41,812 nt of DNA from Chloroflexota bacterium (GCA_013153135.1 JAADFA010000109.1:1-41812), one strand, 5' to 3'; shown: positions 21,224 through 37,861, numbered from the stretch's first letter. Notes: generated by a model from the letters alone, not told the origin. Program-made: numbers and translations.

Positions 21224-21262
21224 TTCAGGAGGGGAGAGGCCACTGCCTTGAGGAGTGGAGCC

Positions 21263-21649: not shown

Positions 21650-22096
21650 ATGGTTACGCAAGCCCCTGACCCGAACCCCACCCAGGAGGAGCCCAGCACG
21701 GGAGGTGACCGGCCGCTGGTTTTGGTGGTGGAGGATAATGTCTCGAATTTTGTCTTGATCGCTCGCATGTTAAGCTATATCGGCATTGATACTCAGTGGA
21801 AGACCTCAGGTTATGAGGTTGTGGAGTTCGCTCGACGCCTGCCGAAAGTAGATTTGATCTTGATGGATATTCGCCTGCCGTATGAAGATGGATATGAGGC
21901 TTTGAAAAAGATCCGAGCGAGCGAGGCCCTTAAAGATGTGCCTGTCATCGCGGTGACCGCGGAGGCGAGTCAGGAGCAAATGCGCAAGGCCCGAGAAGCC
22001 GGATTCAATGGGTTTATCGGCAAGCCGTTGGACCCGGATCGCTTTCCGGACCAAATTCGACGGTTGCTCGCGGGTGAAGAAGTTTGGGAGTTGTGA
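21650..22096 (+). CDS. Stand-alone CheY-like response regulator receiver
   Basis: 148 aa with VVEDN, DLILMDIRLPYEDG, VIAVTA and FIGKP. GAGGGAG lies upstream, and there is a 9-nt gap after the previous gene. Confidence 0.88.
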   Translation: MVTQAPDPNPTQEEPSTGGDRPLVLVVEDNVSNFVLIARMLSYIGIDTQWKTSGYEVVEFARRLPKVDLILMDIRLPYEDGYEALKKIRASEALKDVPVIAVTAEASQEQMRKAREAGFNGFIGKPLDPDRFPDQIRRLLAGEEVWEL

Positions 22097-22105
22097 GGTG
22101 CGGTG

Positions 22106-25100
22106 ATGCCGGAGGAGCCTTTGTTGCCGCTGGGCGCGGATGATGAGGAAGAGGAGCCCTTAGGCCATGATGAGCTGCTCATCCCCGTGGACCTAGGGAC
22201 CGACGAATGGTTGGAAGGCGGTGATGAGCAGCCAGACCAGGGCCGTCGGGCCCAGCCTCGTCCAGCGCAGAAAACTCGGCCCAAGTTCCGTCGGCGATTG
22301 CGGCGCCGCCTGACGGTGGTATTGACGTTGTTTGTGTTCTTGCCCTTCGTGGTTGGCATCCTCTGGCTGTTGTTCCAGGCTCGCGAAGAATGGCGCCGGA
22401 TGACGTTGGTCCAGGACGAGGTGGTGTTGGGCTTGGCTGTGCAAGAGGCACGTGATTGGTTGGTGGAGAGCCAATCGCGGTTGCGTAACGCGCTCCGGGA
22501 TCAAGATGTGCAAGAATCCATCGCCCTGATCCGCCGGTACCAAGACTGGCCCACCAGTCGGCGTTTCGTCAATGCTCGTAAAGCCTTATTCCGCCAGCTA
22601 GAGCAGGCTGTCAACCCCCCACGCGGGCTGCCCTATTACACCGATTTTTTGCTAATTGATGGCATCACCCAAGAGGTGGTGGCGGCGACCCGAGAGGAAT
22701 GGCAAGGGAAGCCCCTGGACGCGTTTCCTTTTAGCCAAGATGTTGTCGACGCGCTTATCCGGCCAGATATCCCCGAGCCCGGCGCGGTGTTGCATCAAGA
22801 AGTGCTCTTTCAATTCGCTGGCCTCGCGAAAGATGGCGAGGAGGCGTACCCCTTAGGGTTGCTCACCTTAGTGGCCGTTCCCGGCCCTGAGGAGGAGCCG
22901 CCCTATTTTTTGATCGCCCTGGGCCCCGCGTGGCCTCTTTATAACGCGCTCTTGAATTTGCAGCAATGGTTGCCTGAAGGTCAGGCTTTTTTGTGGGATG
23001 CTGATGGCCGGCTGTACCAGGTGGTTGAAGGGCAGCGTTTGGCCACGGTCTCGCCCAATAGCTTTTGGGCCCAATTGGGCACGTTGCTCAGTCGCGCTGT
23101 GCGCGAGTCGGCCCCCGAACTGTCGCTGCGGGAACGCTTGGCTTGGTACGTGCCTTTGCCTGAAACCCAGCTTATCGAACCTTATCAGCCCACGCGGAGC
23201 AAAGTGTTGCAAAGTGCGCCCACATGGGTGTTGCTTTACCAGACCCAAATGGGGTTGGCCGTGTGGTTGCCTGAGGCTAAGGTGGGGCTGAGCGCGTTCA
23301 CGCCCGTGGTCTCGTGGCTGGCAGCTTGGCGCAATTTGGCTTTTCAGGGCTTGGCCATTGGCGTGTTCATGCTCGTTTCGTTGGTCGTGGTCGCATGGCG
23401 CCTTTCGCGTTCCATCACTCAGCCCTTGAACCAGCTGGTGCAAAGCGCGGAACGGTTGAACCAAGGCGATTGGTCAGCTCGCGTGGATATTACCACCGAT
23501 GACGAAATCGGACTTTTGGGCTATACCTTCAACGAGCTGGCCGATAACCTGCAGGAGCTCTATACCACCATGGAGCTCGAACTCCAGCTGCGCACACGGC
23601 AGGTGCAGCTGGTTAGCGACTTCATCGACCTGGCCCTGGAAGGCATCCAGGATATGGGCCTCGCGTTGCGCACCATGCTCCAGTGGATTCAGGAGCGCTT
23701 CCCCAACCTGCCGCACACCAGCTTTTTGCTCTGGGATGAAAGCATGGGCCGCTGGGTTACCGGGGCCCGCGTGAGCCAATTGCCGCGTCAAGTGCAACGC
23801 ACCCTGACCGGGCTCGAGGTGCGTTTGGCTGATATGGTGCGCGAGCAGCTTGATTGGCAGCTCTGGATGCGCGGCGGCCGGGAGACCGCGCCCTTAATCC
23901 CCGAACCCCTTGTTGGGCTGGCTGGCGCACCCGTGCTCTTGGGTACGCGCTTGATCGGCGTGCTGATCGTGGGTACGGATCGCGAAGACGCGTTGGAACC
24001 CCACCGGGCCGACGCACTCCGGCTATTGGCTCGCCAGCTCGCGCTGATTTTAGAATATTGGCGCTTGTGGCATTCCGAAGCCCGAGAGGACCGACTGTTG
24101 CGCAGCGGCGAGCGCTTGCTGAGCCAGTTGCGCGACCTGCCGTATCCCAGCTTGCTATGGCCTACTATTGCCCAGATTCTGCAGCAAGAAGAGGCGCGCG
24201 AAACGCTGCTCTTGCGCCCCAAAGAAGGCCTCACCGATACCTGGGAGGTGGTGTACCCCGAAGACGCGAGCAGCGATATCCCCCCGCTGCGTGGGTTGTT
24301 GCCTTTAATCGCGGGTAAGCGTCACGTTGCTTGGCTGTTGGACGACGAGCAAACGCCTTTGGGGCAAGGACTCATGGGATTGGCTGGCTACGCGCGCAGC
24401 CGCAACTGGCGCCGTTTGGATGTGTATCCCATTCGCTCTGTGCGCGATGCGGACGAAGAGGGTGAGCGAGTGCTGGCGTTATGGGTCGTGGGTACATCGG
24501 CCTTGTACGCGCCCTCGGACACGTTCCACCGAATCCATACTTTCTTTGCATCAACTATAGCGTGGATGCACTATTACCTCGATTTGCGTCGCTGGGCGCG
24601 TATCTGGCGCATTGTTGAACGGGTCGCGACGTACGCGCCCGAAGCCCCCTCCGAAGGACATCTCTTTTTGCGCGCCTGGGACGAGATGTTATCGTACCTG
24701 CCCAAGGTTGATTTCTTCTTGGCCCAGTACGACTTGGATACGCAAGATTTTGTGGTCTACGTGTACCCCAGCGGACACCATTACTATCATACGACCATTA
24801 CACCCATCGAGCGCCGGCTGATCTGGCACGTGTTCCGCACGCAGCAGGCGCTGAACCTGGGTGGACGGCATAAGATCATCAGCCAGGTGGGCGATGCGGC
24901 CAGCTTGCCAACCCGGGTGCCAGAGTCCTGGGTCGGCGTGCCGGTGACGTTAGGTCGTCGCCAGCTGGGGGTCATCGGCTTGATGGATTGGGAGAATCCG
25001 CAGCGGTTTGATGATGAACACCTGACTTTCTTGCGCCGTTTGGCCCACGCGTTCAGTGGTCTGCTGTTCTACATCCAGCGCGAGCGTCGTTTGCGCCGCC

Positions 25101-25351
25101 GCAGCGAGCGCGAACGTTGGTTGCGCAGCTTCATCCAACATATCTCCTCATTGACCGACTTGCAGAACATTTTGGACTTTAGCGTACAAGAATTACGTCG
25201 CACCTTCCGCGCGCATCGGGTGCGAGTGCACTTGCGTCTGAGCAGTGAAGCAACGCGCGAAGCTCAGCACGAAACCAAGCAACAGGGGCACCAGCGCCCG
25301 TTGCCGCCGGATACGTCCCAACCGGGCCCGAACGGAGGCGAGCAAGCATGA
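22106..25351 (+). CDS. Membrane sensor: TM, ~330-aa extracytoplasmic domain, TM, HAMP, several divergent GAF-like domains; no output domain recognised
   Basis: 1081 aa. The TM segments are LTVVLTLFVFLPFVVGILWLLF and GLAIGVFMLVSLVVVAW. The HAMP is ITQPLNQLVQSAERLNQGDWSARVDITTDDEIGLLGYTFNELADNL. GAF-type endings include LIGVLIVGTDRED...LLARQLALILE and QLGVIGLMDWENPQRFDDEHLTFLRRLAHAF. Confidence 0.8.
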   Translation: MPEEPLLPLGADDEEEEPLGHDELLIPVDLGTDEWLEGGDEQPDQGRRAQPRPAQKTRPKFRRRLRRRLTVVLTLFVFLPFVVGILWLLFQAREEWRRMTLVQDEVVLGLAVQEARDWLVESQSRLRNALRDQDVQESIALIRRYQDWPTSRRFVNARKALFRQLEQAVNPPRGLPYYTDFLLIDGITQEVVAATREEWQGKPLDAFPFSQDVVDALIRPDIPEPGAVLHQEVLFQFAGLAKDGEEAYPLGLLTLVAVPGPEEEPPYFLIALGPAWPLYNALLNLQQWLPEGQAFLWDADGRLYQVVEGQRLATVSPNSFWAQLGTLLSRAVRESAPELSLRERLAWYVPLPETQLIEPYQPTRSKVLQSAPTWVLLYQTQMGLAVWLPEAKVGLSAFTPVVSWLAAWRNLAFQGLAIGVFMLVSLVVVAWRLSRSITQPLNQLVQSAERLNQGDWSARVDITTDDEIGLLGYTFNELADNLQELYTTMELELQLRTRQVQLVSDFIDLALEGIQDMGLALRTMLQWIQERFPNLPHTSFLLWDESMGRWVTGARVSQLPRQVQRTLTGLEVRLADMVREQLDWQLWMRGGRETAPLIPEPLVGLAGAPVLLGTRLIGVLIVGTDREDALEPHRADALRLLARQLALILEYWRLWHSEAREDRLLRSGERLLSQLRDLPYPSLLWPTIAQILQQEEARETLLLRPKEGLTDTWEVVYPEDASSDIPPLRGLLPLIAGKRHVAWLLDDEQTPLGQGLMGLAGYARSRNWRRLDVYPIRSVRDADEEGERVLALWVVGTSALYAPSDTFHRIHTFFASTIAWMHYYLDLRRWARIWRIVERVATYAPEAPSEGHLFLRAWDEMLSYLPKVDFFLAQYDLDTQDFVVYVYPSGHHYYHTTITPIERRLIWHVFRTQQALNLGGRHKIISQVGDAASLPTRVPESWVGVPVTLGRRQLGVIGLMDWENPQRFDDEHLTFLRRLAHAFSGLLFYIQRERRLRRRSERERWLRSFIQHISSLTDLQNILDFSVQELRRTFRAHRVRVHLRLSSEATREAQHETKQQGHQRPLPPDTSQPGPNGGEQA

Positions 25352-27078
25352 CCACTACGCCGGCCGCGCCTGAGCTCAATCAAGACGTATCCATGTTGCC
25401 GAACATTCAGCTCTACCGGCAACAGCTGCTTGGGATGTTTATCAATTTCATGGGCTTGGGCGCTCTGCCTATTCTATTGAGCTTTTTATGGCGCTTTTGG
25501 CACTTTGAGCGGCTCCGATATTTCTATTTGGCTTTCATTGCTCTAACCATCCTTTTATTGCTGAGCCGCCGTTTGTTTAGTTACCGCGTGCAGGTGACCT
25601 TGCTTATGGTTTTTCTGCACGTGTTGGCTGTCTATAGCGCCTTGTATTGGGGCATTTTCTCCGGTGGGCACCTGTTCTTCTTGGCCGCGCTGCTTATCGG
25701 GTCGCTCTTTTTAGATGTAAGCGGTGCAGTCCTCAATCTCATCGCGACCGCGGTAGTGCATACGATCTTGGCTTATGGGACGCTGGAACTGGGTTGGACC
25801 CTGGTAAGTGTATTCAAGGTTCCGCCGATCGCGTTCCAGTCACGCAATCGTTGGGTAGGCGCGACCATTACCTTTATCTTCGGCGCATCTACCTTGATTG
25901 TGCTTATCCACGCCCTGCAACGGCGCCTTGAGACCGCAGTAGAAGATAGTGTACACCTGGCCCAGATCCTCGATCAAGAACGGCAACGATTGGTCGCCCA
26001 GGAACGCCGTTTGCAACGCCGCGTGCGTCAAATCCGTGCGGTGAGTGAGATTATCAACGCGTTGAGTGAAATCCTCGATCCGGAACAGCTGGTTTGGGAA
26101 GTCGTCGATCAAATCCAGGCTCACTTTGCGTTGTATTACGTGGGTATTTTCACTGTCGACGCGGAATTTGAATACGCGATTTTGCAGGCTGGGAGCGGGG
26201 AAGCAGGTCGTAAAATGGTCCAGGAGGGGTACCGCCTCCCCTTAGGCGGCACCTCTTTGGTCGCTTGGGCCATCACGCAACGCAAGATGCGGGTCGCGCG
26301 CGATACCAAACTCGACCCTGGCCACTTCCCAAATCCCTTTTTGCCTTACACCCGCTCGGAAGTAGCTATCCCATTGATCGCACGCGGCGAGATTTTGGGC
26401 GCAATCACCATCCAATCCGACCGGCCCAATGCGTTCGATGAAGAGGACTTGCGTACGCTGCAAACCCTGGCGAACAGTGTTGCCCTCGCTTTAGCGAACG
26501 CGCAGCTTTTCCAACGTTTCCAATCTCAGCTGCGCGAGATTGAAGCTTTGCACCAACGGCTCTTTGAGCAGGCTTGGGTGGAACAGGAGACCGGTGAAAT
26601 CGAAGCCGAAGCCCATGGTGAACGCCTGCCGAGCAGGCCTGGGTACGAAGTCGAAGAGGAAGCACCAACGCACGTGGTCCGTCGACCGTTATTGCTATAC
26701 GGCCATCCCGTGGGCGAGCTTAGCCTTGAAGTGCCGGTATGGTCCGAAAGTGATGAGGAAATCCTGGAAGGTGTGCTCACCTCGTTGACCAATAGCCTGA
26801 TGGTGGCGCGGCTGCTGAGCTCGCTGCAAGCCTACGTCCGACGGGAGGAGATTCGCTATCGCTTGGCGGAACGGTTCAGTGAGGCTTTGGATTTTGATCT
26901 CTTAGCCCGGGTTACTTTGCAAGGCCTGCAAGAAGTTTTTGGCTTCAATGAGGGCTGGCTGCGTTTGGACGTGGAGGCCTTGTTGGCTGCGGAAGAGGCA
27001 GGTAGCCCATATGGGTCGCCCCGAGCCACGAGCCCTCCAGATGAACCCGGGGCGTCGTCTGCGGAGGAGAGCGCATGA
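25348..27078 (+). CDS. Polytopic (about 6 TM) membrane protein with coiled coil and a canonical GAF domain; no output domain recognised
   Basis: 576 aa, with an ATGA overlap with the upstream gene. The GAF reads HFALYYVGIFTVD...SEVAIPLIARGEILGAITIQSDRPNAFDEEDLRTLQTLANSVALALANAQLF. Confidence 0.8.
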   Translation: MTTTPAAPELNQDVSMLPNIQLYRQQLLGMFINFMGLGALPILLSFLWRFWHFERLRYFYLAFIALTILLLLSRRLFSYRVQVTLLMVFLHVLAVYSALYWGIFSGGHLFFLAALLIGSLFLDVSGAVLNLIATAVVHTILAYGTLELGWTLVSVFKVPPIAFQSRNRWVGATITFIFGASTLIVLIHALQRRLETAVEDSVHLAQILDQERQRLVAQERRLQRRVRQIRAVSEIINALSEILDPEQLVWEVVDQIQAHFALYYVGIFTVDAEFEYAILQAGSGEAGRKMVQEGYRLPLGGTSLVAWAITQRKMRVARDTKLDPGHFPNPFLPYTRSEVAIPLIARGEILGAITIQSDRPNAFDEEDLRTLQTLANSVALALANAQLFQRFQSQLREIEALHQRLFEQAWVEQETGEIEAEAHGERLPSRPGYEVEEEAPTHVVRRPLLLYGHPVGELSLEVPVWSESDEEILEGVLTSLTNSLMVARLLSSLQAYVRREEIRYRLAERFSEALDFDLLARVTLQGLQEVFGFNEGWLRLDVEALLAAEEAGSPYGSPRATSPPDEPGASSAEESA

Positions 27079-30000
27079 GCCAACCGACCCCCTTGGCTCT
27101 AACCAAGCCTCGCCGGTCGTTGCGCGGCATTTTGTGGCGGTATAGTATTGCGCTTATCGCCTTGTTCTTGCTGTTGGGTGGCGTGATCCTCTACTTCACC
27201 CTCGCGACTCAGCGTAGCCTGGAGCAGTCCGTCCGAGACGCGCGACCGGTATTGCTCTTGGAAGAGTCCAAATCGCTGATCGACCAAGCCTTGTTTTTGC
27301 TCAATAGCTTTGGCCGACGCATGGACGAATCCTCCACGCGCAGCCAGGAATTTCAGCTGCGTTTAGTCGGCCGTTTGCTCCCCATCCACTCCGCGCTGGA
27401 GGTCAATTTGCGGGAGTTCGAGGATTACATGAATTCCCTCAGCCCGGATGATCCCCTGGCCACGGAAGTGACGCGCTTGTGGGCTTTGCAGCGCGCGCTG
27501 ACCGAAGCCATGGCCGGTATCATCCAGAACGCGAACCGCGGCAATTGGGGACAGGTCGACTCCCTCATCCGGCACTTTAACGCCCTCTATAGGGACTACA
27601 ACAACGCATATAATTTCTTGCTCTTTCACCTCGAAGAACGGCAGGAGCGCTCGCGTGAACGCATTCAACGCTATTTGACCTACTCCGCGCTCTATCCCTG
27701 GGCCTTTGTCGCGCTGAGCACGATTTTGGTCTTGGGGTTCGCGACCTTCCTTATCCGACGGTTGGTCTCTCCAATTGAATACATGGCGCAGGGCATGCTC
27801 CGCTTCGCGGAGGGTGACCTGAGCTTTCGCTTCCCGGACCCTGGGGACCGGGATGATGAAGTTTCGTATTTGATGCGCGCGTTCAACGCGATGGCCCAAA
27901 GCATCCAAGAGGCCCAGTACCGCCTTGAACACCAGGTGGAAGAGCGCACCTTCGACCTCCAACGCCGCATGACCCAAATCCAGACTGCCGCGGATATCGG
28001 CCGTTTGGTGACCAGCATTCGCGACCTGGACGAACTGCTAGAACGTACGGTGCGCCTCATCGCGGAACGGTTTGGTTATTATCACGTAGGCGTGTTTTTG
28101 GTGGATCAGACAGGCTTATGGATTGAGCTGCGCGCGGCCAGCAGTGAATCCGGGCGGCAGCTGCTCAAGCGTGGGTTGCGTCTGCGCATCGGTCAGGAAG
28201 GCATCGTCGGTTTGGTCGCGCGCACGGGGCATCCGAAGGTTGTTTTGGACGTCGCCGCGGAACCTGCGTACAAGTTCATCTCCGAGCTTTCGCTCACGCG
28301 CTCAGAGATGGCGCTGCCCTTGCGGGTGGGCGATCGCATCCTTGGCGTGTTGGATATCCAAAGCACAGAGCCCCATGCGTTCTCGCCCGCGGATGTAACC
28401 ACGATGCGCATCGTGGCGGATCAGCTCGCGGTGGCTATTGACAACGCGCGGTTGTTGCAAGAGATGCAGCGTGCTTTGGAGTCGTTGCGATGGGCTCACC
28501 GCCAGCTCGCGGCGCAGGGTTGGAAGGAATACCTTCAGATCGCACCAGCCCACGCGTATCGTTTGGACGCGACGGGCCACTTCGAAGCCTTGCGGCTGCA
28601 AGATTCGCGTGATGGCACGCAGCCCCTCTCCGGCGCACCTGGGTACGAAGTTCAGATCCCGATCACAGTGCGCGGGCTGCGGGTCGCCATGTTGGTGCTG
28701 CGCCGTTTGGACCGACCCTGGAGCGCGAGCGAACGCGCGTTTTTGGAGGTTCTCAGCCAGCGCTTGGGCCTGGCCCTGGAGAGCGCGCGGCTCTTCCAAA
28801 TGAGCCAACGTCGGTCGCACTGGCTGCAAGGCGTGGTCGAACTCAGCCAATCCATCCGCTTGCAGGCTGAAGAGGACCTGCTCAATACCTTTGTGCAAGA
28901 GGCCCAATCGCGCTTTGGCCTGTGGCGGGTGGCGGTGTACCTCCAACTGCCTGACCGGGCCGGTGTGGCCTTGCGCGCGGTCGCTGGCGACAGCGCGGAA
29001 ACGTTGCGCCGCGAGGGCCACCAGGTCACCGCGCAAGACCGCGATCCTATCGCTCACGTGCTTCGGCAAGGGCAGTGGCTCTTCTTGCCCACGCCTGAGG
29101 CGCAGCAGCCCTATGGCAACACCGCGCCTGTAGCGAGCGGGCTCTCGCGGCTTATCGTGCCGTTGCGCTCGCAGGATGAGATTTTGGGCGTGGTGGATAT
29201 GCACGCGGCTGTGCCCCAGGCCTTTTTGGCGTCCGACCTGCCCATGCTCCAACTTTTGGCCGACGCGTTGAGCATCGCCTTGGCGAATACCCGCTTGGTC
29301 GCGGGCTTGCAGCGCCTGTTGCAAGAGCACCAAATTTTGCAGCAAGGGTTGACGCAGATCACCTTGGCTCACACCATGGACGAAGCCTTGCGCAAGGCCG
29401 CGCAGATCTTGCAGATGATGGACCCCTTGCAAACGGTTGCTGTCTACCAGGTACACCAAGATCTAGAAGACAATTTAGACCGCGTCGTGGCCGCAGGCGT
29501 GGATGCGGCTACCATGTGGCCGGACCAAATCCCCCTCGACGCAGCTGGGGTGCTCTCGCAAGCTGCCCGCGAACGCCAAGCCTTGTGGTGGGTCCAGCTG
29601 GCTTGGGAGCATGACGCCCCCGTGGGTCAGCGCGCGTTTATGGCTGTGCCCATCGTTTACGGTGAGCGCCTGTGGGGCCTCTTGGCTTTGAGTCACGTCC
29701 GGGCCGATGGTTACCATGTGGGCTCATGGGAGCTGTTGCAAAGCTTTGCCAGCACCCTCGCGGGTATCTTGACCAACTTGGAGCTGTTGGACGAAGTTCA
29801 GGCTCGTTCCGAACAACTGCAAACGCTGTACGAGTTTTCGAGTACGTTGGCTCGACACACGAAGATCTTTGATCTATTGGACGAAAGTACGCAATTCTTT
29901 GTGCGAATTTTCCGCGCATCGCACGCGGCCGTCTTCTTCTTCGATGGCTCGCCGCCCAAGAACATTACTTTGGTGGCCTGGGCCAGCAGCGAGACCACGG

Positions 30001-30596
30001 ATACCCCCCCGCGGTTTACGTCGTTGCCCGCGGATAGCTTGCCGCTCGAACGAATTTTGGAAGCGAATCGTCCCGTGGTCTGGCTTGAGGATGCGATCCA
30101 AACGCTGCCCAAACCGTGGCGCGAGTTTATCCAACGGTACGATATCCGTTCGGTTGTCGTCGCGCCGCTGAACCTTACGCGTGGGGCGATCGGGCTCGTC
30201 TTTCTCATGTATCCGAACCCCATGCCGGATTTCGACAAGACCGATCGCAGTTTGCTCGACCAGATGCTCAGCCAACTGAGTCTGGCCGTGCAGACGGCCA
30301 ACCTCTTGGCCCAATTGGAACGTTGGGCCAAGCGCGAACGCCTCATCCGCGAGATCACGGTCAAACTGCGCTCCACCACCGACCCTTACCAGATGATTCA
30401 AATCGCGATTCAAGAGCTGCGCCGCGCGCTGGGCGCGAGCAAAGCTCAGCTTTTGTTTATCCAGACCCCTACGGCTCCGTCCCCCACACCACCAGGCGCG
30501 GGGGAGGTCGCAGAGCCGCCCGATCCGGCATCGTGGCTCGACATGGATTTGGAAGACATCCCGCCGCCAAAGCCATCGGACGCGGCCAAGGGGTAA
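27075..30596 (+). CDS. Membrane sensor: TM, helical extracytoplasmic domain, TM, HAMP, about 5 GAF domains; no output domain recognised
   Basis: 1173 aa, with an ATGA overlap with the upstream gene. The HAMP is VSPIEYMAQGMLRFAEGDLSFRFPDPGDRDDEVSYLMRAFNAMAQSI. The first GAF (ERFGYYHVGVFLVD...ALPLRVGDRILGVLDIQSTEPHAFSPADV...ADQLAVAIDNARLL) is closely paralogous to the last GAF of the kinase. Confidence 0.82.
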   Translation: MSQPTPLALTKPRRSLRGILWRYSIALIALFLLLGGVILYFTLATQRSLEQSVRDARPVLLLEESKSLIDQALFLLNSFGRRMDESSTRSQEFQLRLVGRLLPIHSALEVNLREFEDYMNSLSPDDPLATEVTRLWALQRALTEAMAGIIQNANRGNWGQVDSLIRHFNALYRDYNNAYNFLLFHLEERQERSRERIQRYLTYSALYPWAFVALSTILVLGFATFLIRRLVSPIEYMAQGMLRFAEGDLSFRFPDPGDRDDEVSYLMRAFNAMAQSIQEAQYRLEHQVEERTFDLQRRMTQIQTAADIGRLVTSIRDLDELLERTVRLIAERFGYYHVGVFLVDQTGLWIELRAASSESGRQLLKRGLRLRIGQEGIVGLVARTGHPKVVLDVAAEPAYKFISELSLTRSEMALPLRVGDRILGVLDIQSTEPHAFSPADVTTMRIVADQLAVAIDNARLLQEMQRALESLRWAHRQLAAQGWKEYLQIAPAHAYRLDATGHFEALRLQDSRDGTQPLSGAPGYEVQIPITVRGLRVAMLVLRRLDRPWSASERAFLEVLSQRLGLALESARLFQMSQRRSHWLQGVVELSQSIRLQAEEDLLNTFVQEAQSRFGLWRVAVYLQLPDRAGVALRAVAGDSAETLRREGHQVTAQDRDPIAHVLRQGQWLFLPTPEAQQPYGNTAPVASGLSRLIVPLRSQDEILGVVDMHAAVPQAFLASDLPMLQLLADALSIALANTRLVAGLQRLLQEHQILQQGLTQITLAHTMDEALRKAAQILQMMDPLQTVAVYQVHQDLEDNLDRVVAAGVDAATMWPDQIPLDAAGVLSQAARERQALWWVQLAWEHDAPVGQRAFMAVPIVYGERLWGLLALSHVRADGYHVGSWELLQSFASTLAGILTNLELLDEVQARSEQLQTLYEFSSTLARHTKIFDLLDESTQFFVRIFRASHAAVFFFDGSPPKNITLVAWASSETTDTPPRFTSLPADSLPLERILEANRPVVWLEDAIQTLPKPWREFIQRYDIRSVVVAPLNLTRGAIGLVFLMYPNPMPDFDKTDRSLLDQMLSQLSLAVQTANLLAQLERWAKRERLIREITVKLRSTTDPYQMIQIAIQELRRALGASKAQLLFIQTPTAPSPTPPGAGEVAEPPDPASWLDMDLEDIPPPKPSDAAKG

Positions 30597-30620: not shown

Positions 30621-31427
30621 GTGCCACGACCTCGAAACCGTTGGGCTTTTATGCATCAGAAAGGTGGCGTAGCCAAGACCACCAGCGCGGCCGCCGTCGC
30701 CGGCGCGTTGGTGGAACAGGGATATCGCGTGCTGGCTTTGGACTTGGACCCCCAGGGCAGCTTGACGTTGGCCTTGGGCTTTCGCCCGCAAGAGCAAAGC
30801 CTGACCATTGCTCAGGTGCTGCAGTCCGATGACCCCACCCTATGGCAGCGCGCCGTTCGCCCAACGGAAGTGGAAAACCTCGACCTTATCCCCGCGAACG
30901 CGTCGCTCTCTGCCGTAATGTCAACGTTGAGCGGGAATTACTTGCGTTTGCGTAAGGCCCTGGATCGAATTACCACATACGACTTTATTATCATGGATAC
31001 ACCACCCGTCTTGCGCTTGGATATTGCCCCAGCTGTTGCGCTTGCAGCCGATGTATTGCTCATTCCAACACAGGCTGAGTATTTCTCGGTTTACGCCATC
31101 GCGGATGTGCTCAAATTGGTCCGTTGGGCTCGACAGTCGCACAACCCGGGCTTGATGTATCGCATCTTTATTACCATGTTTCAGAAGCGAAACCGCGCGC
31201 ACGCGTTGTTGCGTGCTCGGTTGGAAGCCACCTTTGGCGACGGGTTGTGCCAAACTGTTATTGGTGTGGATACGAAAGTGCGCGAAGCAGCCATCGCGGG
31301 TTTGCCTATTACTCACTTTGCTCCTCGTTCACGGGCTGCTTTGCAATATCGCGCGTTGACCCAGGAGGTCCTTGCTTATGTCCGAGAACAAAACCCCCAA
31401 ACGCCCTACCCGACGCCGAAAGCGTAA
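30621..31427 (+). CDS. ParA/MinD-family ATPase with an atypical P-loop (KGGVAKTT)
   Basis: 268 aa. The GTG start lies 5 nt after GGGAGGG. It has the deviant Walker A QKGGVAKTT (Ala at 30672-30674 where GKT Gly is expected), A' LALDLDPQGS, and Walker B FIIMDTPP. No ParB-like gene is in the window. Confidence 0.8.
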   Translation: MPRPRNRWAFMHQKGGVAKTTSAAAVAGALVEQGYRVLALDLDPQGSLTLALGFRPQEQSLTIAQVLQSDDPTLWQRAVRPTEVENLDLIPANASLSAVMSTLSGNYLRLRKALDRITTYDFIIMDTPPVLRLDIAPAVALAADVLLIPTQAEYFSVYAIADVLKLVRWARQSHNPGLMYRIFITMFQKRNRAHALLRARLEATFGDGLCQTVIGVDTKVREAAIAGLPITHFAPRSRAALQYRALTQEVLAYVREQNPQTPYPTPKA

Positions 31428-34400
31428 GGATGGGCGCAAAGCCAAGCGCATAGAGGAACGCTTGAACGCGTTGGGCCCGTGGGATGCTGGCGACGCGTTG
31501 GATTTTCAAGCGTTGCAGCAGGGTGCGGAAGAGGCCGATTCTTCGGCGCCTGACTCATCATCGACGGGTACGGGCCCCTTCCCGCGGCGTACGGGTGTGC
31601 TGGGGACGCTGGTTTGGCCCGGGACAGATAGCCTCGGCCGTCCGGACGCGACCACGGGGCTTTCGCTTGGTACGGACGCGTGGACGCAATTACTCCGCGC
31701 CCAGACCTTTGGCATGCGCGCGGAAGGGAACGTGATCCAGTTAACCGATGCGCCGCTCTCGCCTTATGGTGAGCAGAGCCTGCAGTCGCTAGAGCCGATC
31801 ATGAAAGAAGAGGGGGGCCAGGCTTTCCTCGCCCTGCCGGTGCAAGAGGACGACCGTTTGGTTCTTTTCGAGGCTGTGGCCCCCGCCCCTCGCAAATGGT
31901 TCGATGACGACGCGCATTTGATTCAGCAAACCCTGGAACAACTTTCGCGCGCGCTGGAACATGCCTACCTGTTCCAAGGCACGCAGGCCGCATTGGCCGA
32001 AGTTGAACGCCTGTATCGGGCCACCGCGCGGGTGTTGCAGGCCCAATCCTTCCCCGAGATCTTGCCCATTTTGGCGAAGTTTACGCCCTTGGGGCAGGGG
32101 GTTTACGCGTTGTTCCTCTTTCTGTACCACCCTGTGTCGGGTGGGCCTGGGCCGCGTCCGTTGCGCTTGGCTGCTCAATGGAGCCCACGGCCCATTGCCC
32201 CTGTGTCGTTCACGACCTTGGGGCCGCAAGACGCGCGCATCCCCGACCGGGTTGTATGGCTCGCTTCGGTGGATGAGGGCAGCCACCATTTGCCCGCGCC
32301 CCTGCGGTCGTACCTTTTGCGCAATACCTCGGCCCGTTCTGCGGTTATCGCACCACTGCGCATTGGTGCAGAGAAGATCGGCGTGGTGTACGGTTTGTAC
32401 GAACATCTCCCCGAGGTGCTGGAACGGGATAAGCGGGCCCTGGAGACCATCTTAGGCCAGGCTGCGATTCAGGTGCGCAGCCTCGCGTTGCATACCGAGC
32501 TGCGGGACGCGCTGGCTTTCACAGACCGCCTTTACCACGTCGCCTTGGCCTTGAACGAGGCCGAGTCGTTCCAAGCGGTATTGGATATTTTATGGGACTA
32601 CACCGCGCTGGGCCGCAATGCCCTCGCGGCAGCCATTATGTTGTTCGAACCCCTACTGAGCGACACGCAAACGCCTAATTGGGCAGAAGTGGTCGCAGGT
32701 CGTGTGGCGCCACCACTGGAAGCCGGGCGTCCGGAAGAACGTTGGCGTTTTTCGTTCCTGCCAGGCCAAAGTGAGGGAGCATCGCTGGCTACCGAAGATT
32801 TGGCTGTGCTGGATTCACCTGAGGCGGTCGAACGGCTACGGGAGGTGTTCGCGCGGCAGAATATCTATTGGGTTCGGGATACGAACAACGAACCTCTACT
32901 CGCGAAGCGTTTTGTTCAGTTTTTCCAAGAGCGTTTCGGCGTCCGCAGCGGCGTCATCGTGCCCTTGCGTTTGGGCGATCAGATCATTGGCGTCGTCACG
33001 GCCGCGTATGGGCACCGCATTGAGCCTTGGCCTGAGGACGAGCAGCAAATCCTCGCTGTCGTCGCGGCCCAAGCGGCGGTCCGTGTGCGTTCTCTGGCCC
33101 TGTTGGCTGAAAACGTGCGTCGGGCGCAACAGCTGGAGCTGGCCTCACAAATCGCCCGGGATATCAGCAGCACGTTAAACCTGCAGGAGCTGCTGGAGCG
33201 CGCCGTCAACCTGATTCGTGAACGGTTCGGTTACTACCACGCGGCCATCTTCTTGCTCGACGAGCGCGGTGAATACGCCGAGATCCGCGCGGCAACGGGG
33301 GAAATTGGGCAGATCATGGTTCGTAGTGGGCACCGGCTAGCGGTGGGTTCGCAATCTGTGGTAGGGCAAACCGCGGCCCGGGGGGAGCCGATCGTGGTTA
33401 ACGATACCCGCCAGAGCGAAATCCATCGCCCGAACCCGCTCTTGCCCGAGACGCGCGCGGAGATCGGCCTGCCCTTGCGCGTGGGCAATCGCGTCATTGG
33501 CGTGCTGGATGTGCAATCGCGCCATGCGTACGCCTTCCGGCCCGACGATGTGCGTGCGCTGCAGCTCTTGGCCGACCAGCTGGCCGTCGCGGTCGAAAAC
33601 GCCCGGGCCTACGAGCTCAACCGTCGCGCGCTCGAAAACTTGCGCCGGGCCGATGAGCTCAAGAGTCAGTTCTTGGCCAATATGAGCCATGAGCTGCGCA
33701 CGCCCCTCAACTCCATCATCGGCTTTTCGCGCATCATCCTTAAGGGCATCGACGGGCCCATCAACGACCTGCAACGCCAAGACTTGGAGGCCATCTACAA
33801 CGCGGGGCAGCACCTGCTCGGCCTGATCAACGACATTCTCGACCTTTCCAAGATCGAGGCCGGTAAGATGGATCTCATCTTTGAAGAGGTCGATGTCCCG
33901 CGCATTATTGAGAGCGTGATGGCCACAGCCAAGGGCCTGGTGAAGGACAAACCCGTCCGTCTGGAAGTGGATATCGAACCCGATTTGCCGCCCTTGCGGG
34001 CCGATGCGAAGCGATTTCGCCAAATTCTGCTCAACCTGATTTCCAACGCGGCCAAGTTCACCAAAGAGGGATACATCCGTGTCCGTGCGTGGCGCCAGAT
34101 GGACCCTGACTCCGGTTACACTGAGCTTATCCTCGCGGTGGAGGATACCGGGCCGGGCATCCCGCCGGAGCATCTGGAGAATCTCTTCCAGCCGTTCTAC
34201 CAGGTGGATGCTAGCCTCACGCGGGAAGTCGGCGGCACGGGTTTGGGGCTGGCCATTGTGCGCAACTTGGTCGAACTGCATGGCGGTCGCATCTGGGTCG
34301 AGAGCGAAGTGGGCAAGGGCACGACGTTTTACGTGGCCTTCCCCCTCACGCCTACGCGACGTAAGGAAGATGGCGGGGAAACGTTCCTCTTGGTCCTCGA

Positions 34401-35130
34401 GCCAGACGAAGAGCGGGTTAATCAACTGCGCCGTCACTTTTCGGTCCGTGGCTACCGCGTAGTACAGGTCAGTCAGCTGGGTGAGCTCATCGCACGCACC
34501 ACCACGTTGTACCCATTGGCCATCTTGATCAATCCCTTCTTGCCCCAGCTGATGGGCATTGAAGCGCTCCAAGAGTTGAAAAAACGTCCCGAGACTCGTC
34601 TTGTCCCAACGCAGTTCTTCGCCCTTGCCCTGAAGGATAACCGTGCCTACTTGCCTTGCGTGTATGCCATTACCACCAAGCCGCTGCAATCTGTCGATGT
34701 GCGCTACTTCCTCCAAATGGCTGAACTCAAGCCATACGAAACCGTCTTGCTCGTGGATCGGCACGACCAGCACGCGGCTCGGGTCCTCGAACAGTTCCGC
34801 GAGTTGGGCATCGCCAACGTCCAAGTAACCCAGGCTTTGACCCAGGACGTGCTGACCCAGCCGCCTACGTTGCTTGTGTGGGATCTGCTCGCTCCGGCCG
34901 AACCGGAAGCATTGGCCATTGTGCGGCGTTGGGTGCGCGAGGAACAACGCATCCGCTTCGCGATCGCGATGTTTGAGCAAGAATTTTCATCCGAAAGCCG
35001 CAGCCTGTTCTTAGAGCGGATGCAGCTCTATCGGCAACACTGCGCGACGTCCATGCCCGAGGGTCTCAGCCTCTTAGAACGGATGCTGTACTACATCGAA
35101 GCCCACCGCACAGGGCAATCTTCATCCTAA
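31378..35130 (+). CDS. Soluble multi-GAF sensor histidine kinase with two C-terminal degenerate receiver-like domains
   Basis: ~1250 aa with no TM segment and a Lys/Arg-rich N-terminus. It has about 4 GAF domains. The H-box is FLANMSHELRTPLNS (His codon 33688-33690), the N box NLISNAAKFT, G1 VEDTGPGI and G2 GGTGLGLAI. The ATG at 31378 lies 9 nt after AGGAGG and overlaps the ParA-like gene by 50 nt. Confidence 0.88.
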   Translation: MSENKTPKRPTRRRKRKDGRKAKRIEERLNALGPWDAGDALDFQALQQGAEEADSSAPDSSSTGTGPFPRRTGVLGTLVWPGTDSLGRPDATTGLSLGTDAWTQLLRAQTFGMRAEGNVIQLTDAPLSPYGEQSLQSLEPIMKEEGGQAFLALPVQEDDRLVLFEAVAPAPRKWFDDDAHLIQQTLEQLSRALEHAYLFQGTQAALAEVERLYRATARVLQAQSFPEILPILAKFTPLGQGVYALFLFLYHPVSGGPGPRPLRLAAQWSPRPIAPVSFTTLGPQDARIPDRVVWLASVDEGSHHLPAPLRSYLLRNTSARSAVIAPLRIGAEKIGVVYGLYEHLPEVLERDKRALETILGQAAIQVRSLALHTELRDALAFTDRLYHVALALNEAESFQAVLDILWDYTALGRNALAAAIMLFEPLLSDTQTPNWAEVVAGRVAPPLEAGRPEERWRFSFLPGQSEGASLATEDLAVLDSPEAVERLREVFARQNIYWVRDTNNEPLLAKRFVQFFQERFGVRSGVIVPLRLGDQIIGVVTAAYGHRIEPWPEDEQQILAVVAAQAAVRVRSLALLAENVRRAQQLELASQIARDISSTLNLQELLERAVNLIRERFGYYHAAIFLLDERGEYAEIRAATGEIGQIMVRSGHRLAVGSQSVVGQTAARGEPIVVNDTRQSEIHRPNPLLPETRAEIGLPLRVGNRVIGVLDVQSRHAYAFRPDDVRALQLLADQLAVAVENARAYELNRRALENLRRADELKSQFLANMSHELRTPLNSIIGFSRIILKGIDGPINDLQRQDLEAIYNAGQHLLGLINDILDLSKIEAGKMDLIFEEVDVPRIIESVMATAKGLVKDKPVRLEVDIEPDLPPLRADAKRFRQILLNLISNAAKFTKEGYIRVRAWRQMDPDSGYTELILAVEDTGPGIPPEHLENLFQPFYQVDASLTREVGGTGLGLAIVRNLVELHGGRIWVESEVGKGTTFYVAFPLTPTRRKEDGGETFLLVLEPDEERVNQLRRHFSVRGYRVVQVSQLGELIARTTTLYPLAILINPFLPQLMGIEALQELKKRPETRLVPTQFFALALKDNRAYLPCVYAITTKPLQSVDVRYFLQMAELKPYETVLLVDRHDQHAARVLEQFRELGIANVQVTQALTQDVLTQPPTLLVWDLLAPAEPEALAIVRRWVREEQRIRFAIAMFEQEFSSESRSLFLERMQLYRQHCATSMPEGLSLLERMLYYIEAHRTGQSSS

Positions 35131-35148: not shown

Positions 35149-36861
35149 ATGCCAACCGCGGTGAAGATTACGGCCCGTTGTTTGGATTGTGGCGCGTCGG
35201 TCCCCTTCGACCCCGCCCAACCGCGCTGCCCCAAGTGCGGCAGCGAGTGGCTTCAGGCCGAATACGATTACGACTTGGCTCGAACCATATGGCTGGCGCA
35301 TCTGCACGAGCGCCCCTTCAGCCTCTGGCGCTACCATGAATTGCTGCCCATCCGCGAGGCGCCCCCTACCATCGCGATGGGCGCGGGCGGTACTCCCCTC
35401 CTGCGCTCCATCCACCTCGCGCCCATGCTCAAACTCTCGAATTTGTTCATCAAGGATGAACGGCAGAACCCCACCTCGTCTTTCAAGGACCGCCAGGCCG
35501 CGGTGACCATCGCGACCCTCAAAGAGGCGGGCCTGACCGAGATGGTGGTGGCCTCGACGGGTAACGTGGCCATCGCTTATTCCGCCTTCGCCGCGCGCGC
35601 GGGCATCAAACTGTGGGCTTTCCTGACGTCCCTGGTGCCCCAGGAGAAAATGCGCGAGGTCGCGATTTATGGAACCCGCCTGGTTAAGGTGACCGCGACC
35701 TACGACGAGACCAAGAAGGTGGCCGCGGAGTTCGCGCGGCAAAGGGGGTTGTATATCGACCGCGGATCCCGCTCCATTCCCACGGTCGAATCCATGAAGA
35801 CCTTGGCCTTCGAAATTGTGGAACAGCTCACGCAATTCGCGCCCGACGCGCGCTACGGTCGTCTGCCTTGGCGTGTGCCCGATTGGTACATCCAGGCCGT
35901 GAGCGGTGGACTCGGGCCCCTAGGCGTGGCCAAGGGCTTTCGCGAACTCTATCACATGGGCCTTATCGACCGTATGCCCAAGCTGGGCATCATCCAGGCC
36001 GCGGGGTGCGACCCCATGGTGCGCGCGTGGGAACAGGGCAAGGCCGTCGCGGATCCCCTGCCGCGGCCCAGTACTCACATCACCACCTTGGCCACGGGCA
36101 ATCCTGGGCGGACGTATACCTTCCTCTATGAGTACGTCCGCGAGCATGGCGGGGTGTTCGCCCGCGTAACTGATGAAGAGGCCTTCCGCGCGATGCACAT
36201 GTTGGCGAAGATGGAAGGCTTGTCTGTCGAGCCCGCGACGGCCGTCGCTTTCGCGGGCCTCATCCAATTGGTGCGTGAAGGGGTCATCCAGCCTCATGAG
36301 GTGGTGGTGGTCAACGCGACGGGGCATACCATGCCTATTGAATCCCACATCTTGGGCGACCGCTGGGCCCGGCATGTGGTCCTTGCCCAGCGTGGCGAGG
36401 GAGCCGCGGCTGAAGCCCCACAAGAGGGCCTGGTCGCCGCGCTTAGCAACTTGGCCGCGGAGCGCTACCCGCGCGTGCTCATCGTTGAAGATCATGAGCC
36501 CGCGCGCGTGCTGCTTCGACGCATTTTGCAATCCTTGGGCGATTACACCATCCTCGAGGCAAAGGACGGTTACGAGGCTTTGGAGATTGCTCAGCGTGAG
36601 GTCCCAGACCTTATCATCCTTGACTTGATGATGCCCGGGCTCGATGGCTTCGCGGTCCTTGATTCGCTCAAAGCTCATCCGAACACCGCGCATATCCCCG
36701 TGATTGTGGTCACGGCCAAATCGCTTAATGCGCGGGAGCAGCAGCGCCTTTTGAGCCAGCAGGCCAAATTGATGTACAAAGGTGAATTTCTGAGTGATGA
36801 ATTTTTGAACGAAATTCGCTCGGTCTTAGCGCAGATTCGCAATGGGACCGGGCGAGAATAG
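35149..36861 (+). CDS. Threonine-synthase-like PLP enzyme fused to a C-terminal response-regulator receiver domain
   Basis: 570 aa. It has an N-terminal Cys4 ribbon (CLDCG...CPKCG), GGTPLL, the PLP-lysine motif NPTSSFKDRQ (Lys codon 35485-35487), ASTGNVAIA and VSGGLGPLG. After a linker comes a receiver with RVLIVEDHEP, DLIILDLMMPGLDG (Asp codon 36622-36624), VIVVTA and MYKGEF. Confidence 0.85.
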   Translation: MPTAVKITARCLDCGASVPFDPAQPRCPKCGSEWLQAEYDYDLARTIWLAHLHERPFSLWRYHELLPIREAPPTIAMGAGGTPLLRSIHLAPMLKLSNLFIKDERQNPTSSFKDRQAAVTIATLKEAGLTEMVVASTGNVAIAYSAFAARAGIKLWAFLTSLVPQEKMREVAIYGTRLVKVTATYDETKKVAAEFARQRGLYIDRGSRSIPTVESMKTLAFEIVEQLTQFAPDARYGRLPWRVPDWYIQAVSGGLGPLGVAKGFRELYHMGLIDRMPKLGIIQAAGCDPMVRAWEQGKAVADPLPRPSTHITTLATGNPGRTYTFLYEYVREHGGVFARVTDEEAFRAMHMLAKMEGLSVEPATAVAFAGLIQLVREGVIQPHEVVVVNATGHTMPIESHILGDRWARHVVLAQRGEGAAAEAPQEGLVAALSNLAAERYPRVLIVEDHEPARVLLRRILQSLGDYTILEAKDGYEALEIAQREVPDLIILDLMMPGLDGFAVLDSLKAHPNTAHIPVIVVTAKSLNAREQQRLLSQQAKLMYKGEFLSDEFLNEIRSVLAQIRNGTGRE

Positions 36862-36896: not shown

Positions 36897-36922
36897 TTGC
36901 CGTGCTGTATACGACCACAGGG

Positions 36923-37861
36923 ATGACTTCGCGACGTTTCTCCATTCGCGTTCAAGGAACTTTGGCCGCGTTGGCCTCGGCATTCTTTTTGGGGATGACC
37001 CCCATATTTGGCAAGCTGGCTATTCGTGCCGGCATGTCACCCCTGGCCGTAGCCGCGTGGCGCACGGTGTTGGCTACGCTCCTGTTGTTTGTGTTGTTGC
37101 GCGTGCTACGTCCGCAATGGCTTTATATTCACAGCCTGGGCCTCATCGGCAGTATGTTGGCCGGGGCTATTAATGGCTTGGGCTCCCTGTTTTACTACAG
37201 CGCCTTGGCGCGCATTGATGCCTCCCTCGGTCAGCTGCTCTTCGCTTTGTACCCCATCTTTTTGAGCTTATGGCTCTGGCTCGATCGGCACCCCTTCACC
37301 CGTTGGACGTGGATTCGCCTGGCCCTGGCCCTGCCCGCGGTGTACTTTTTGACTCAGGCCGACCCAAGCGCCCCCGCGGATCCCGTCGGCGTGGCCATGG
37401 CTTTGTTCGCGTCCGCAATGTACGCGTTGCATCTACCCATCAACCAGCGGGTGCTGTACGAAGCGCCCGCGCCCACGGTTACCCTGTATACTTTGACCGC
37501 GATGAGCTTGGTGGTTGCGCTCGCGTACGTTCTCATCGGCCCGCGCACATTACCTACCACGCCCGAACGCTGGCAACCCCTCTTGGGCCTGACGTTGGTC
37601 ACCTTTGCTTCGCGGTTGACTTTATTCCTGGGCGTTAAGAACATTGGCGGGATGCAGGCCGCGCTCTTGGGCCTGGGGGAGCTCGCGGTCACGGTCTTTT
37701 TCGCGCATTGGTGGCTGGGTGAGACCCTTACCCCGCGCCAGTGGATCGGCGCGGGGTTGCTCTTGGTGGTCATGTTGTTGGGCCGCTTTGACCATACGCA
37801 GCGACCCCGGCCCCAACGAGGCGGCTGGCTCCGTTGGCTCCAACCGCCTGATTTGGGTTAA
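36923..37861 (+). CDS. EamA/DMT-superfamily transporter
   Basis: 312 aa from MTSRRFSIRVQG, about 10 TM, with a two-fold EamA-like repeat pattern. I trimmed the ORF-track start at 36842, which overlaps the upstream gene and the hairpin. Confidence 0.78.
   Translation: MTSRRFSIRVQGTLAALASAFFLGMTPIFGKLAIRAGMSPLAVAAWRTVLATLLLFVLLRVLRPQWLYIHSLGLIGSMLAGAINGLGSLFYYSALARIDASLGQLLFALYPIFLSLWLWLDRHPFTRWTWIRLALALPAVYFLTQADPSAPADPVGVAMALFASAMYALHLPINQRVLYEAPAPTVTLYTLTAMSLVVALAYVLIGPRTLPTTPERWQPLLGLTLVTFASRLTLFLGVKNIGGMQAALLGLGELAVTVFFAHWWLGETLTPRQWIGAGLLLVVMLLGRFDHTQRPRPQRGGWLRWLQPPDLG

Follow-up and report, generated by a model that had tools for sequence, protein, structure and literature searches.

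In textbooks, two-component systems act on transcription, chemotaxis and cyclic-di-GMP, and several response regulators have their receiver covalently joined to a catalytic domain, as in the CheB methylesterase, the PleD/WspR diguanylate cyclases, RpfG and the RsbU-type phosphatases. The subject of this work is the open reading frame (ORF) at 35149-36861 of a 41,812-nt stretch of DNA from a Chloroflexota bacterium (GCA_013153135.1, JAADFA010000109.1; the whole stretch is called the window below), which encodes an enzyme like threonine synthase (ThrC), dependent on pyridoxal 5'-phosphate (PLP), fused to a receiver (PALP-REC). Like the enzymatic response regulators, PALP-REC is encoded beside a histidine kinase, and its enzyme activity would come under environmental control. 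Unlike the CheB- and PleD-type regulators, it has a PLP amino-acid enzyme as its output, carries the receiver at the C-terminus rather than the N-terminus and is paired with a metabolite transporter.

The joining of receivers to metabolic enzymes is a recognised general strategy, catalogued by Galperin and co-workers (PMC5847659). A CheY-like fold on a PLP enzyme is also found in Rv2531c of M. tuberculosis, a PLP decarboxylase with a receiver-fold "wing"/RRD domain whose movement is tied to the oligomeric state (PMC12329521). Rv2531c is a fold-type I enzyme with the domain at its N-terminus, and the paper describing it is silent on phosphorylation (PMC12329521), whereas PALP-REC has the full phospho-acceptor set and an adjacent kinase. 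Fusions of PALP to LeuA or PadR-type modules involve the same superfamily and an appended module that is usually C-terminal, but these modules sense small molecules or bind DNA, while the receiver of PALP-REC would couple the enzyme to a phosphorelay. Plant ThrC carries an N-terminal extension that responds to S-adenosylmethionine (SAM), and its structure 2C2B is among the Foldseek matches of PALP-REC.

Three enzymes of the superfamily are the natural standards of comparison. ThrC (1UIM/1V7C of T. thermophilus, 2ZSJ of A. aeolicus) shares with PALP-REC fold-type II, the SFKDR motif, the S-T-G-N loop, E162/K165/T166 and T317 (T. thermophilus numbering, used for the PLP domain throughout), but has neither the N-terminal zinc ribbon nor the C-terminal receiver, belongs to a hom-thrB context rather than a signalling/transporter operon and falls in another clade. 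MetM is, like PALP-REC, a long-form ThrC homologue with an extra N-terminal module; position 88 is hydrophobic in both, and neither has equivalents of R160 and N188. MetM differs in having no receiver and in its loop motifs. The cysteate synthase CapA2 (9K3C) has a long-form ThrC-like architecture and is, together with ThrC, the best structural match; Foldseek aligns it over 425 columns at 3.2 Å, while its sequence match is weak. No description of a ThrC/PALP-receiver fusion was found in the full-text literature, as the original prediction had supposed, and the names of these proteins in databases ("threonine synthase", "PLP-dependent enzyme", "pyridoxal-phosphate dependent enzyme") are automatic. 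PALP-REC represents a response regulator that is widespread and uncharacterised and whose enzymatic output is new. We favour, with moderate confidence, its reading as an enzymatic response regulator that is phosphorylated by the neighbouring kinase and has a specialised PLP enzyme of the ThrC superfamily as its output, the substrate or product of which would be moved by the EamA-family transporter encoded downstream.

The fusion is real and forms a single uninterrupted protein. The frame is continuous from its ATG, which is preceded just 5' by a Shine-Dalgarno-like GGAGG and lies 18 nt from the stop codon of the kinase gene on the same strand. A missed stop or a frameshift between 36370 and 36470 had been named as what would refute the fusion; the junction holds neither. 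An independent gene call of the Joint Genome Institute (JGI) on the same contig (Ga0072504_108344) gives an identical 570-residue product, and PALP and REC share one ORF in 85 of 85 homologous loci fetched from independent assemblies. A sequencing or assembly artefact or a frameshift fusion is ruled out by these observations. The features of the gene are as follows:

35149..36861, plus strand: PALP-REC, 570-residue ThrC-like PLP enzyme fused to a receiver
35179..35238, plus strand: Cys4 zinc ribbon in the translation (C11, C14, C27, C30; CLDCG...CPKCG)
35374..36324, plus strand: fold-type II PLP catalytic domain, residues 76-392 (Pfam PALP), with the Schiff-base Lys113 at codon 35485-35487
36325..36468, plus strand: inter-domain linker, residues 393-440 (from the alignment and the AlphaFold2 (AF2) model)
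36469..36840, plus strand: receiver domain, residues 441-564 (Pfam and PDB matches), with the phospho-acceptor Asp492 at codon 36622-36624

Both domains are recognised well above their Pfam thresholds, PALP at residues 76-392 (E = 6.6e-63, 213 bits, cut-off 35) and Response_reg at residues 443-528 (E = 1.5e-20, 73.8 bits, gathering threshold 30.2), and the PDB receivers RR468, PleD and CheY align with residues 442-560; the complete CheY-like receiver described in the original prediction is thereby borne out. Every motif listed there is present in the translation at its expected place: GGTPLL (80-85), NPTSSFKDRQ (with Lys113), ASTGNVA (135-141) and SGGLGPLG (252-259) in the PALP domain, and VEDHE (445-449), IILDLMMPGLDG (with Asp492), VVTA (520-523) and MYKGEF (542-547) in the receiver. 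The description of the N-terminus as a short-form ThrC holds as regards a ThrC-like fold-type II enzyme, but not as regards the form, the protein being long-form and bearing a zinc ribbon, which gives weak matches to Rpo12/RpoP-type ribbons. The linker contains a conserved helix, P-x-E-G-L-L-A-A-L; the alignment shows no variation at G427 and a conservation of 90% or more at P424, A431 and L432. The AF2 model of the whole protein is only moderate (pLDDT 76.4, pTM 0.65), with pLDDT below 50 in linker residues 394-428.

The architecture is common. Relatives of PALP-REC occur in at least 584 species genomes (Anaerolineae, Thermoflexus) of the GTDB, one genome per species having been scanned, and the best 80 of these species matches are all labelled Anaerolineae or Chloroflexota (including "Chloroflexia") except one, on a probably mis-binned contig. 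That contig (L022, DYLS01000027.1) belongs to a metagenome-assembled genome (MAG) labelled Blastopirellula marina; it has the Anaerolineae-type order kinase/PALP-REC/EamA and ~61% identity. Among 5.8 billion proteins searched, the best 120 matches all combine PF00291 with PF00072, are 553-590 residues long and come from Chloroflexota/Anaerolineales MAGs. A second large fused group of ~548 residues, here subfamily 2, is found in Aggregatilineales/Anaerolineae and keeps the order kinase, PALP-REC, EamA; a further fused group, of 536-540 residues, belongs to Thermoflexus. When 1.84 billion cluster representatives were searched exhaustively, the receiver was found only in proteins at least ~50% identical to the query, and more distant relatives were unfused. 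The possibility that the architecture would prove both common and already characterised was thus realised in its first part only, and no characterisation was found.

There are also many PALP-REC-REC proteins of ~700 residues with two tandem receivers (the 708-residue P0122 of loci L087/L088 and about 20 proteins of 690-727 residues). Their loci keep the kinase upstream, and downstream they have two single-receiver genes and a GNAT acetyltransferase gene, not EamA.

Both halves of the protein retain their functional residues. Among 231 fused PALP-REC sequences, the four Cys of the zinc ribbon are kept in 226-231 and the Schiff-base Lys113 in 230, while the receiver quintet is nearly without exception (E/D447, D448 and K544 in 230 sequences each, D492 and T/S522 in all 231). 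In an alignment of 126 sequences, F60-K61-D62-R63, E162, K165-T166 and T317-G318 are essentially invariant; the equivalents of K61, of the carboxylate loop S84-T85-G86-N87 and of T317, the Thr/Ser that contacts the pyridine N1, are kept in at least 125. The functional residues of both domains are, judged from these sequences, under strong purifying selection, and their conservation argues against a pseudo-enzyme as well as against a degenerate receiver. The loss of essential ThrC residues, which the original prediction had named as a possibility, is therefore not seen in the catalytic set; it is the ligands of the substrate phosphate that are replaced.

The ligands in question, which we take from the 1V7C literature to be T88, N154, S155, R160 and N188 of T. 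thermophilus ThrC, bind the phosphate of O-phosphohomoserine. Across the 126 sequences T88 is replaced by V (121), S155 by G (125), R160 by S or T (122) and N188 by G (125), and the N154 position is variable, mostly R, K or M. The replacements recur in a second alignment that includes the canonical Microcystis ThrC2. The PLP-phosphate loop has changed from GNAGN to SGGLGP, and a new conserved Arg/Lys stands at column 156. The window protein falls under every curated ThrC equivalog cut-off of NCBIfam (TIGR00260, 145.7 against 167.1; NF006050, 254.4 against 303; NF004170, 183.7 against 421). On this sequence evidence the catalytic domain is not a canonical threonine synthase, and the earlier caution over its substrate was well placed. 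The replacements do not take O-phosphohomoserine itself out of consideration, because MetM-like enzymes, which use it, likewise have no T88, R160 or N188; the chemistry may be ThrC-like, MetM-like or of another kind.

A genuine threonine synthase, possibly the main one of the organism, with the receiver as an add-on throttle comparable to the SAM activation of plant ThrC and with EamA as an RhtA-like exporter of threonine or homoserine, is in our view unlikely, although part of the evidence fits it. Threonine synthases occupy all the top places among the NCBIfam and PDB matches (the closest PDB relatives by sequence are ThrC structures, at 1e-40), ThrC structures reach a TM-score of ~0.8 in Foldseek, subfamily 2, named threonine synthase at NCBI, passes TIGR00260 marginally (~170 against 167.1), and the EamA family includes RhtA. 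T. hugenholtzii, which possesses three RhtA-type genes, accumulates extracellular homoserine/threonine in culture (PMC8129789), and the synthesis of threonine from O-phosphohomoserine in vitro is reported for a related long-form enzyme of cyanobacteria, at a very low Vmax (PMC12172450). Besides the missed cut-offs and the family-wide replacement of four of the five phosphate ligands, the gene context speaks against this explanation: no hom, thrB or second thrC lies in the window, where the absence of another thrC had been noted before, or in any of the 85 loci of relatives.

The Thermoflexus group bears on the same question. According to its supplementary KEGG Orthology table, T. hugenholtzii JAD2 has thrB and two K01733 (thrC) genes, a strong one (score 190) beside hppA and a weak one (score 73) beside mtnA, and none of its RhtA genes adjoins either thrC. 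In Thermoflexus MAGs the PALP-REC gene starts 6 nt 3' of an IF-2B/MtnA-family gene (L095-L097; 10001-11623 of L095) and is followed by an SBP_bac_5 gene, with PNP_UDP_1 and S-methyltransferase/MTHFR genes nearby in L097; it has no adjacent kinase or EamA. The shared mtnA synteny implies that the fused Thermoflexus gene is the weak K01733 hit, which coexists with a far better scoring, canonical thrC, and the weak gene is apparently the JAD2 orthologue of PALP-REC. Members of the family that have no receiver appear, from their gene context, to be hosted by cyanobacteria, which are reported to retain canonical ThrC2 (PMC12172450), co-occurrence on those very contigs being assumed. The fused gene is thus probably a specialised paralogue rather than the housekeeping ThrC.

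The position of the PLP domain among ThrC and its relatives, a matter raised in the original prediction, was addressed with bootstrapped neighbour-joining trees, in which the domain falls in a clade of its own. The fused proteins and the group without a receiver, from cyanobacterium-like contigs, are monophyletic (98% bootstrap), and the latter group nests with subfamily 2 (99%), which points to one old fusion and a later, secondary loss of the receiver. Clade X (100%) comprises all these sequences and a few rare unfused proteins and has the signature SFKDRQ, STGNV, G.(R/K)S....E(S/A)MKT, VSGG.GP and T.I.TL.TG.PG. Reference sequences of Microcystis ThrC1 and ThrC2, recovered from the supplement of a paper, represented the MetM core and the canonical type in the trees. 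The canonical ThrC2 groups with the T. thermophilus type, and "ThrC1" lies in a MetM-core clade of its own (96%). The experimentally studied Microcystis "unique ThrC" had been considered as a member of the fused clade and was rejected, as the recovered sequence falls in the separate MetM-like clade; P0127 and P0134, used as search seeds, brought up no named cyanobacterial matches of this type.

These trees are also relevant to a MetM-like role, in which O-phosphohomoserine and sulfide, a thiocarboxylate or a thiol would yield homocysteine or a product related to methionine. A GapMind preprint of 2026 describes MetM, a homologue of ThrC, as "often misannotated" as threonine synthase, and the window domain scores higher against the MetM-like Microcystis ThrC1 (199 bits, 34% identity) than against canonical ThrCs (135-152 bits). 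As in MetM-like enzymes, position 88 is hydrophobic, R160 and N188 are missing, and the loop has its Arg at an earlier place. The gene context adds several points in favour, namely the methionine-salvage surroundings in Thermoflexus (mtnA, PNP_UDP_1, S-methyltransferase/MTHFR), the neighbours of the sister-group protein P0136, among them a TauE sulfite/sulfonate exporter and a radical-SAM enzyme, and a SAM hydroxide adenosyltransferase gene that diverges from the cluster in the window. Yet the 34% identity compares with 51.6% between Microcystis ThrC1 and the MetM homocysteine synthase of Streptomyces albulus, and the sister grouping of clade X and the MetM core has a bootstrap of 24%. The clade X motifs VSGGxGP and T.I.TL.TG.PG are missing from MetM-like sequences, no recurrent GG-terminated ORF of 60-115 residues that could encode a MetO-like carrier was found in the 1.73 Mb surrounding the fused genes, and the Rfam scan of the window gave no family at the gathering score, SAM and T-box riboswitches included. 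By identity, clustering, carrier and riboswitch alike, PALP-REC thus stands apart from MetM, and we regard a MetM-like reaction as doubtful; if it did take place, the synthesis or salvage of sulfur amino acids would be under two-component control. Cysteate synthases are likewise distant, with 120.2 bits against the TIGR03844 cut-off of 324.9 and 1.6e-13 for 9K3C.

The locus L092 of P0136 also contains genes for a 619-residue protein, the radical-SAM/SPASM enzyme, the TauE/SafE anion exporter and an Fe-alcohol dehydrogenase, and looks like a small specialised pathway.

A further alternative is that the enzyme carries out beta-elimination in a catabolic or detoxifying role, e.g., as a threonine/serine deaminase or with a racemase-like activity; it would act on an amino acid imported by the adjacent transporter and be activated by an extracellular cue. 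The SGGxG loop is closer to the glycine-rich loop of IlvA and the serine dehydratases than to the GNAGN of ThrC, and dehydratases and racemases are among the significant structural matches. Some relatives have dCache_1 in upstream sensors, at the position of the membrane sensors of the window, and the unfused members in cyanobacterium-like contexts lie alongside genes for an SDF amino-acid/dicarboxylate symporter and an amino-acid-binding substrate-binding protein. Characterised EamA proteins, however, are mostly exporters, the dehydratase scores are far below those of ThrC (67 against 254 bits; in Foldseek, ~1e-20 to 1e-16 against 1e-23), and the ThrC-type small-domain residues E162, K165 and T166 are conserved. 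Although a threonine deaminase side activity is reported within the ThrC family (PMC12172450), we consider beta-elimination quite improbable.

PALP-REC is the eighth of nine co-directional, closely packed genes (21119-37861). The other eight are:

21119..21640, plus strand: gene 1, REC-A, stand-alone single-domain response regulator (Pfam Response_reg 1.6e-26, profile 1-110/111)
21650..22096, plus strand: gene 2, REC-B, second stand-alone single-domain response regulator (Pfam Response_reg 2.1e-22)
22103..25351, plus strand: gene 3, membrane sensor A, HAMP-GAF (Pfam HAMP 7e-14, GAF 1.9e-13)
25348..27078, plus strand: gene 4, membrane protein B, N-terminus with several transmembrane segments, MASE11-like, followed by GAF (GAF_2 2.8e-18, weak MASE11 7.7e-4)
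27075..30596, plus strand: gene 5, membrane sensor C, two transmembrane segments, HAMP and four GAF domains (GAF_2 2.9e-56 in 4 stretches, HAMP 6.5e-12)
30621..31427, plus strand: gene 6, ParA/MinD-like P-loop ATPase (Pfam AAA_31 6.1e-36, CbiA 9.9e-17)
31378..35130, plus strand: gene 7, soluble GAF-GAF-HisKA-HATPase_c histidine kinase of 1250 residues (GAF 5.8e-36, HisKA 5.7e-21, HATPase_c 1.7e-33)
36902..37861, plus strand: gene 9, EamA/DMT-family transporter of 319 residues (Pfam EamA 5.2e-28, two repeats)

The immediate neighbours of PALP-REC are strongly conserved. The kinase gene lies directly 5' of the fused gene in 74 of the 74 loci with room for it, and EamA directly 3' in 79 of 80. 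The kinase, for which the JGI call gives the start at 31378, has the H-box SHELRTPLN in its translation and is the presumed cognate kinase of PALP-REC. Its C-terminus (window 34372-35127, ~250 residues) contains one or two degenerate receiver-like domains, with a weak Response_reg match (6.2e-4), and in the first copy the acceptor Asp is replaced by Asn (ILINPF); in some relatives the tail scores as a normal receiver. The EamA gene starts at GTG 36902 in the JGI call, within an ORF open from 36842; its product matches nothing more specific than the generic TIGR00950, at 52 bits (cut-off 230).

Further upstream, membrane sensor A has hydropathy peaks at residues 76-94 and 412-430 that flank a ~320-residue loop, and homologues of it occur in the clusters of relatives. 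Membrane protein B has several hydropathy peaks in residues 27-187, and MASE11+GAF proteins stand at the equivalent position in L002 and L003. Membrane sensor C has transmembrane peaks at 26-44 and 209-227 and an equivalent of ~1130 residues in L002, L004, L007 and L009. The genes of A and B, and those of B and C, overlap by 4 nt. No recognisable output domain (kinase, cyclase or methyl-accepting chemotaxis protein) was found in the three membrane proteins, which presumably signal to the soluble kinase via protein contacts. The two small receivers at the head of the cluster recur as a tandem pair 5' of the signalling block in L031 (5223-6124) and L083 (2434-3258); the start codon of REC-A is uncertain, and its receiver, found with the PALP-REC receiver as query at 1.5e-18, spans residues 54-165. 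The ParA-like ATPase is under the cut-off of every NCBIfam ParA/MinD/BcsQ model, and a ParA-like gene lies at most 7.5 kb upstream in 58 of the 63 relatives with enough upstream sequence. Its presence in a two-component operon recalls the ParA-like proteins that position chemosensory arrays.

Taken with this gene order, our preferred reading of PALP-REC as a kinase-controlled enzyme would work as follows. The upstream HAMP/GAF membrane sensors probably feed their input to the co-operonic soluble GAF histidine kinase, from which we infer phosphotransfer to Asp492 of the C-terminal receiver, and the phosphorylated receiver would switch, in one direction or the other, the activity of the covalently attached PLP enzyme. 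A likely route is an altered packing of the receiver against the normally dimeric fold-type II domain, or dimerisation alongside it, via the ~45-residue linker; by analogy, the regulation could be a gating as in CheB or an oligomerisation as in PleD. The catalytic domain would be active and belong, as a specialised member, to the long-form (zinc-ribbon) threonine-synthase superfamily, and its most likely reaction a gamma-elimination or gamma-replacement of the ThrC/MetM type on O-phosphohomoserine or a close analogue, with EamA either exporting the resulting amino acid or importing the substrate. The occurrence of other C-terminal regulatory modules (LeuA, PadR) on long-form ThrC-like enzymes fits a receiver acting as regulator of the enzyme, as does the recognised joining of receivers to metabolic enzymes (PMC5847659). 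The link to transport extends beyond EamA: the unfused members in cyanobacterium-like contexts have the SDF symporter gene beside them, and the sister-group member P0136 has TauE nearby.

Several observations weigh against this reading. In the AF2 model no interface between receiver and enzyme is predicted with confidence, and the proposed mechanism of regulation is therefore argued by analogy. One kinase faces three potential receivers in the cluster (REC-A, REC-B and PALP-REC), and the two stand-alone receivers together with the degenerate kinase tail mean that the flow of phosphate may branch, PALP-REC being perhaps a minor acceptor. The Thermoflexus gene has no kinase or EamA gene next to it, the marginal TIGR00260 score of subfamily 2 leaves room for a true threonine synthase, and the ligand changes shared with MetM-like enzymes do not fix the substrate either way. 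The coexistence with a canonical thrC, finally, is deduced via synteny in one genus, outside the genome of the window.

Some of these points would suit a different explanation, in which the PLP domain is mainly a ligand sensor (a pseudo-enzyme) that signals the level of an amino acid to the receiver, and the protein a phosphate sink or modulator in a branched phosphorelay with the stand-alone receivers. Three receivers per kinase are typical of sink or branched architectures, tandem two-receiver variants exist, and the Thermoflexus gene lacks an adjacent kinase. We nevertheless hold this to be very unlikely, given the almost invariant Schiff-base Lys, glycines of the PLP-phosphate loop, N1-binding Thr/Ser and carboxylate loop, the conserved transporter partner and the persistence of members without a receiver as stand-alone enzymes.

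A more speculative view, to which we attach a low probability, is that the reaction of the clade X enzymes is neither threonine nor homocysteine synthesis, and that the nine-gene cluster is a dedicated "sense-and-secrete" or "sense-and-consume" device for an amino-acid-derived molecule exported by EamA. Extracytoplasmic HAMP/GAF/dCache sensors, organised with the help of the ParA-like ATPase, would then drive the kinase, and phosphorylation of Asp492 would gate production within seconds, the product being possibly a cross-feeding or signalling metabolite of filamentous Anaerolineae. If so, the terminal output of a two-component system would be the synthesis and release of a small molecule, and not transcription, motility or second messengers.

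Should the preferred reading of a phosphorylation-controlled PLP enzyme be true, direct phospho-control of an amino-acid enzyme would constitute a new class of two-component output, and a rare bacterial case in which amino-acid chemistry is under post-translational, signal-driven control rather than control of gene expression. The Anaerolineae and Thermoflexus hosts are difficult to grow and are dominant organisms of activated sludge, sediments and hot springs. The automatic annotation as "threonine synthase" can mislead metabolic reconstructions and predictions of auxotrophy, e.g., calls of KEGG module M00018, and the present analysis delimits a well-supported, uncharacterised ThrC/MetM-like clade with its own active-site signature. 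The system is amenable to testing, as it offers a soluble enzyme with a defined acceptor Asp, a soluble kinase and a cultured relative, T. hugenholtzii JAD2.

Other fusions were met among the long-form ThrC-like proteins: P0168, P0185 and P0231 (611-633 residues), P0190, P0202 and P0256 (471-499 residues) and P0245 (718 residues), the attached parts being C-terminal LeuA allosteric/dimerisation, C-terminal PadR winged-helix and N-terminal inositol-monophosphatase domains. This family, and its C-terminus especially, is a hotspot for regulatory fusions, most of them apparently undescribed.

A scan of the cluster for promoters and terminators gave fewer sites than shuffled controls and was uninformative. 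A perfect 10-bp GC-rich hairpin at 36870-36896 (GGCCCCGTCC-7 nt-GGACGGGGCC; dG -27 kcal/mol, z ~ -4.9) lies in the 40 nt that separate the PALP-REC stop from the GTG start of EamA; it lacks a U-tail, and relatives do not conserve it. The SAM hydroxide adenosyltransferase gene (SAM_HAT_N/C), at 20072-20965 on the minus strand, diverges from the start of the cluster; this adjacency may be a coincidence or, like that of mtnA in Thermoflexus, a faint link to methionine/SAM. On the other side, a PolX-type DNA polymerase/PHP gene (37887-39587, plus strand) begins 25 nt after EamA, a neighbour that is not conserved in relatives, and the remaining genes of the window are housekeeping genes.

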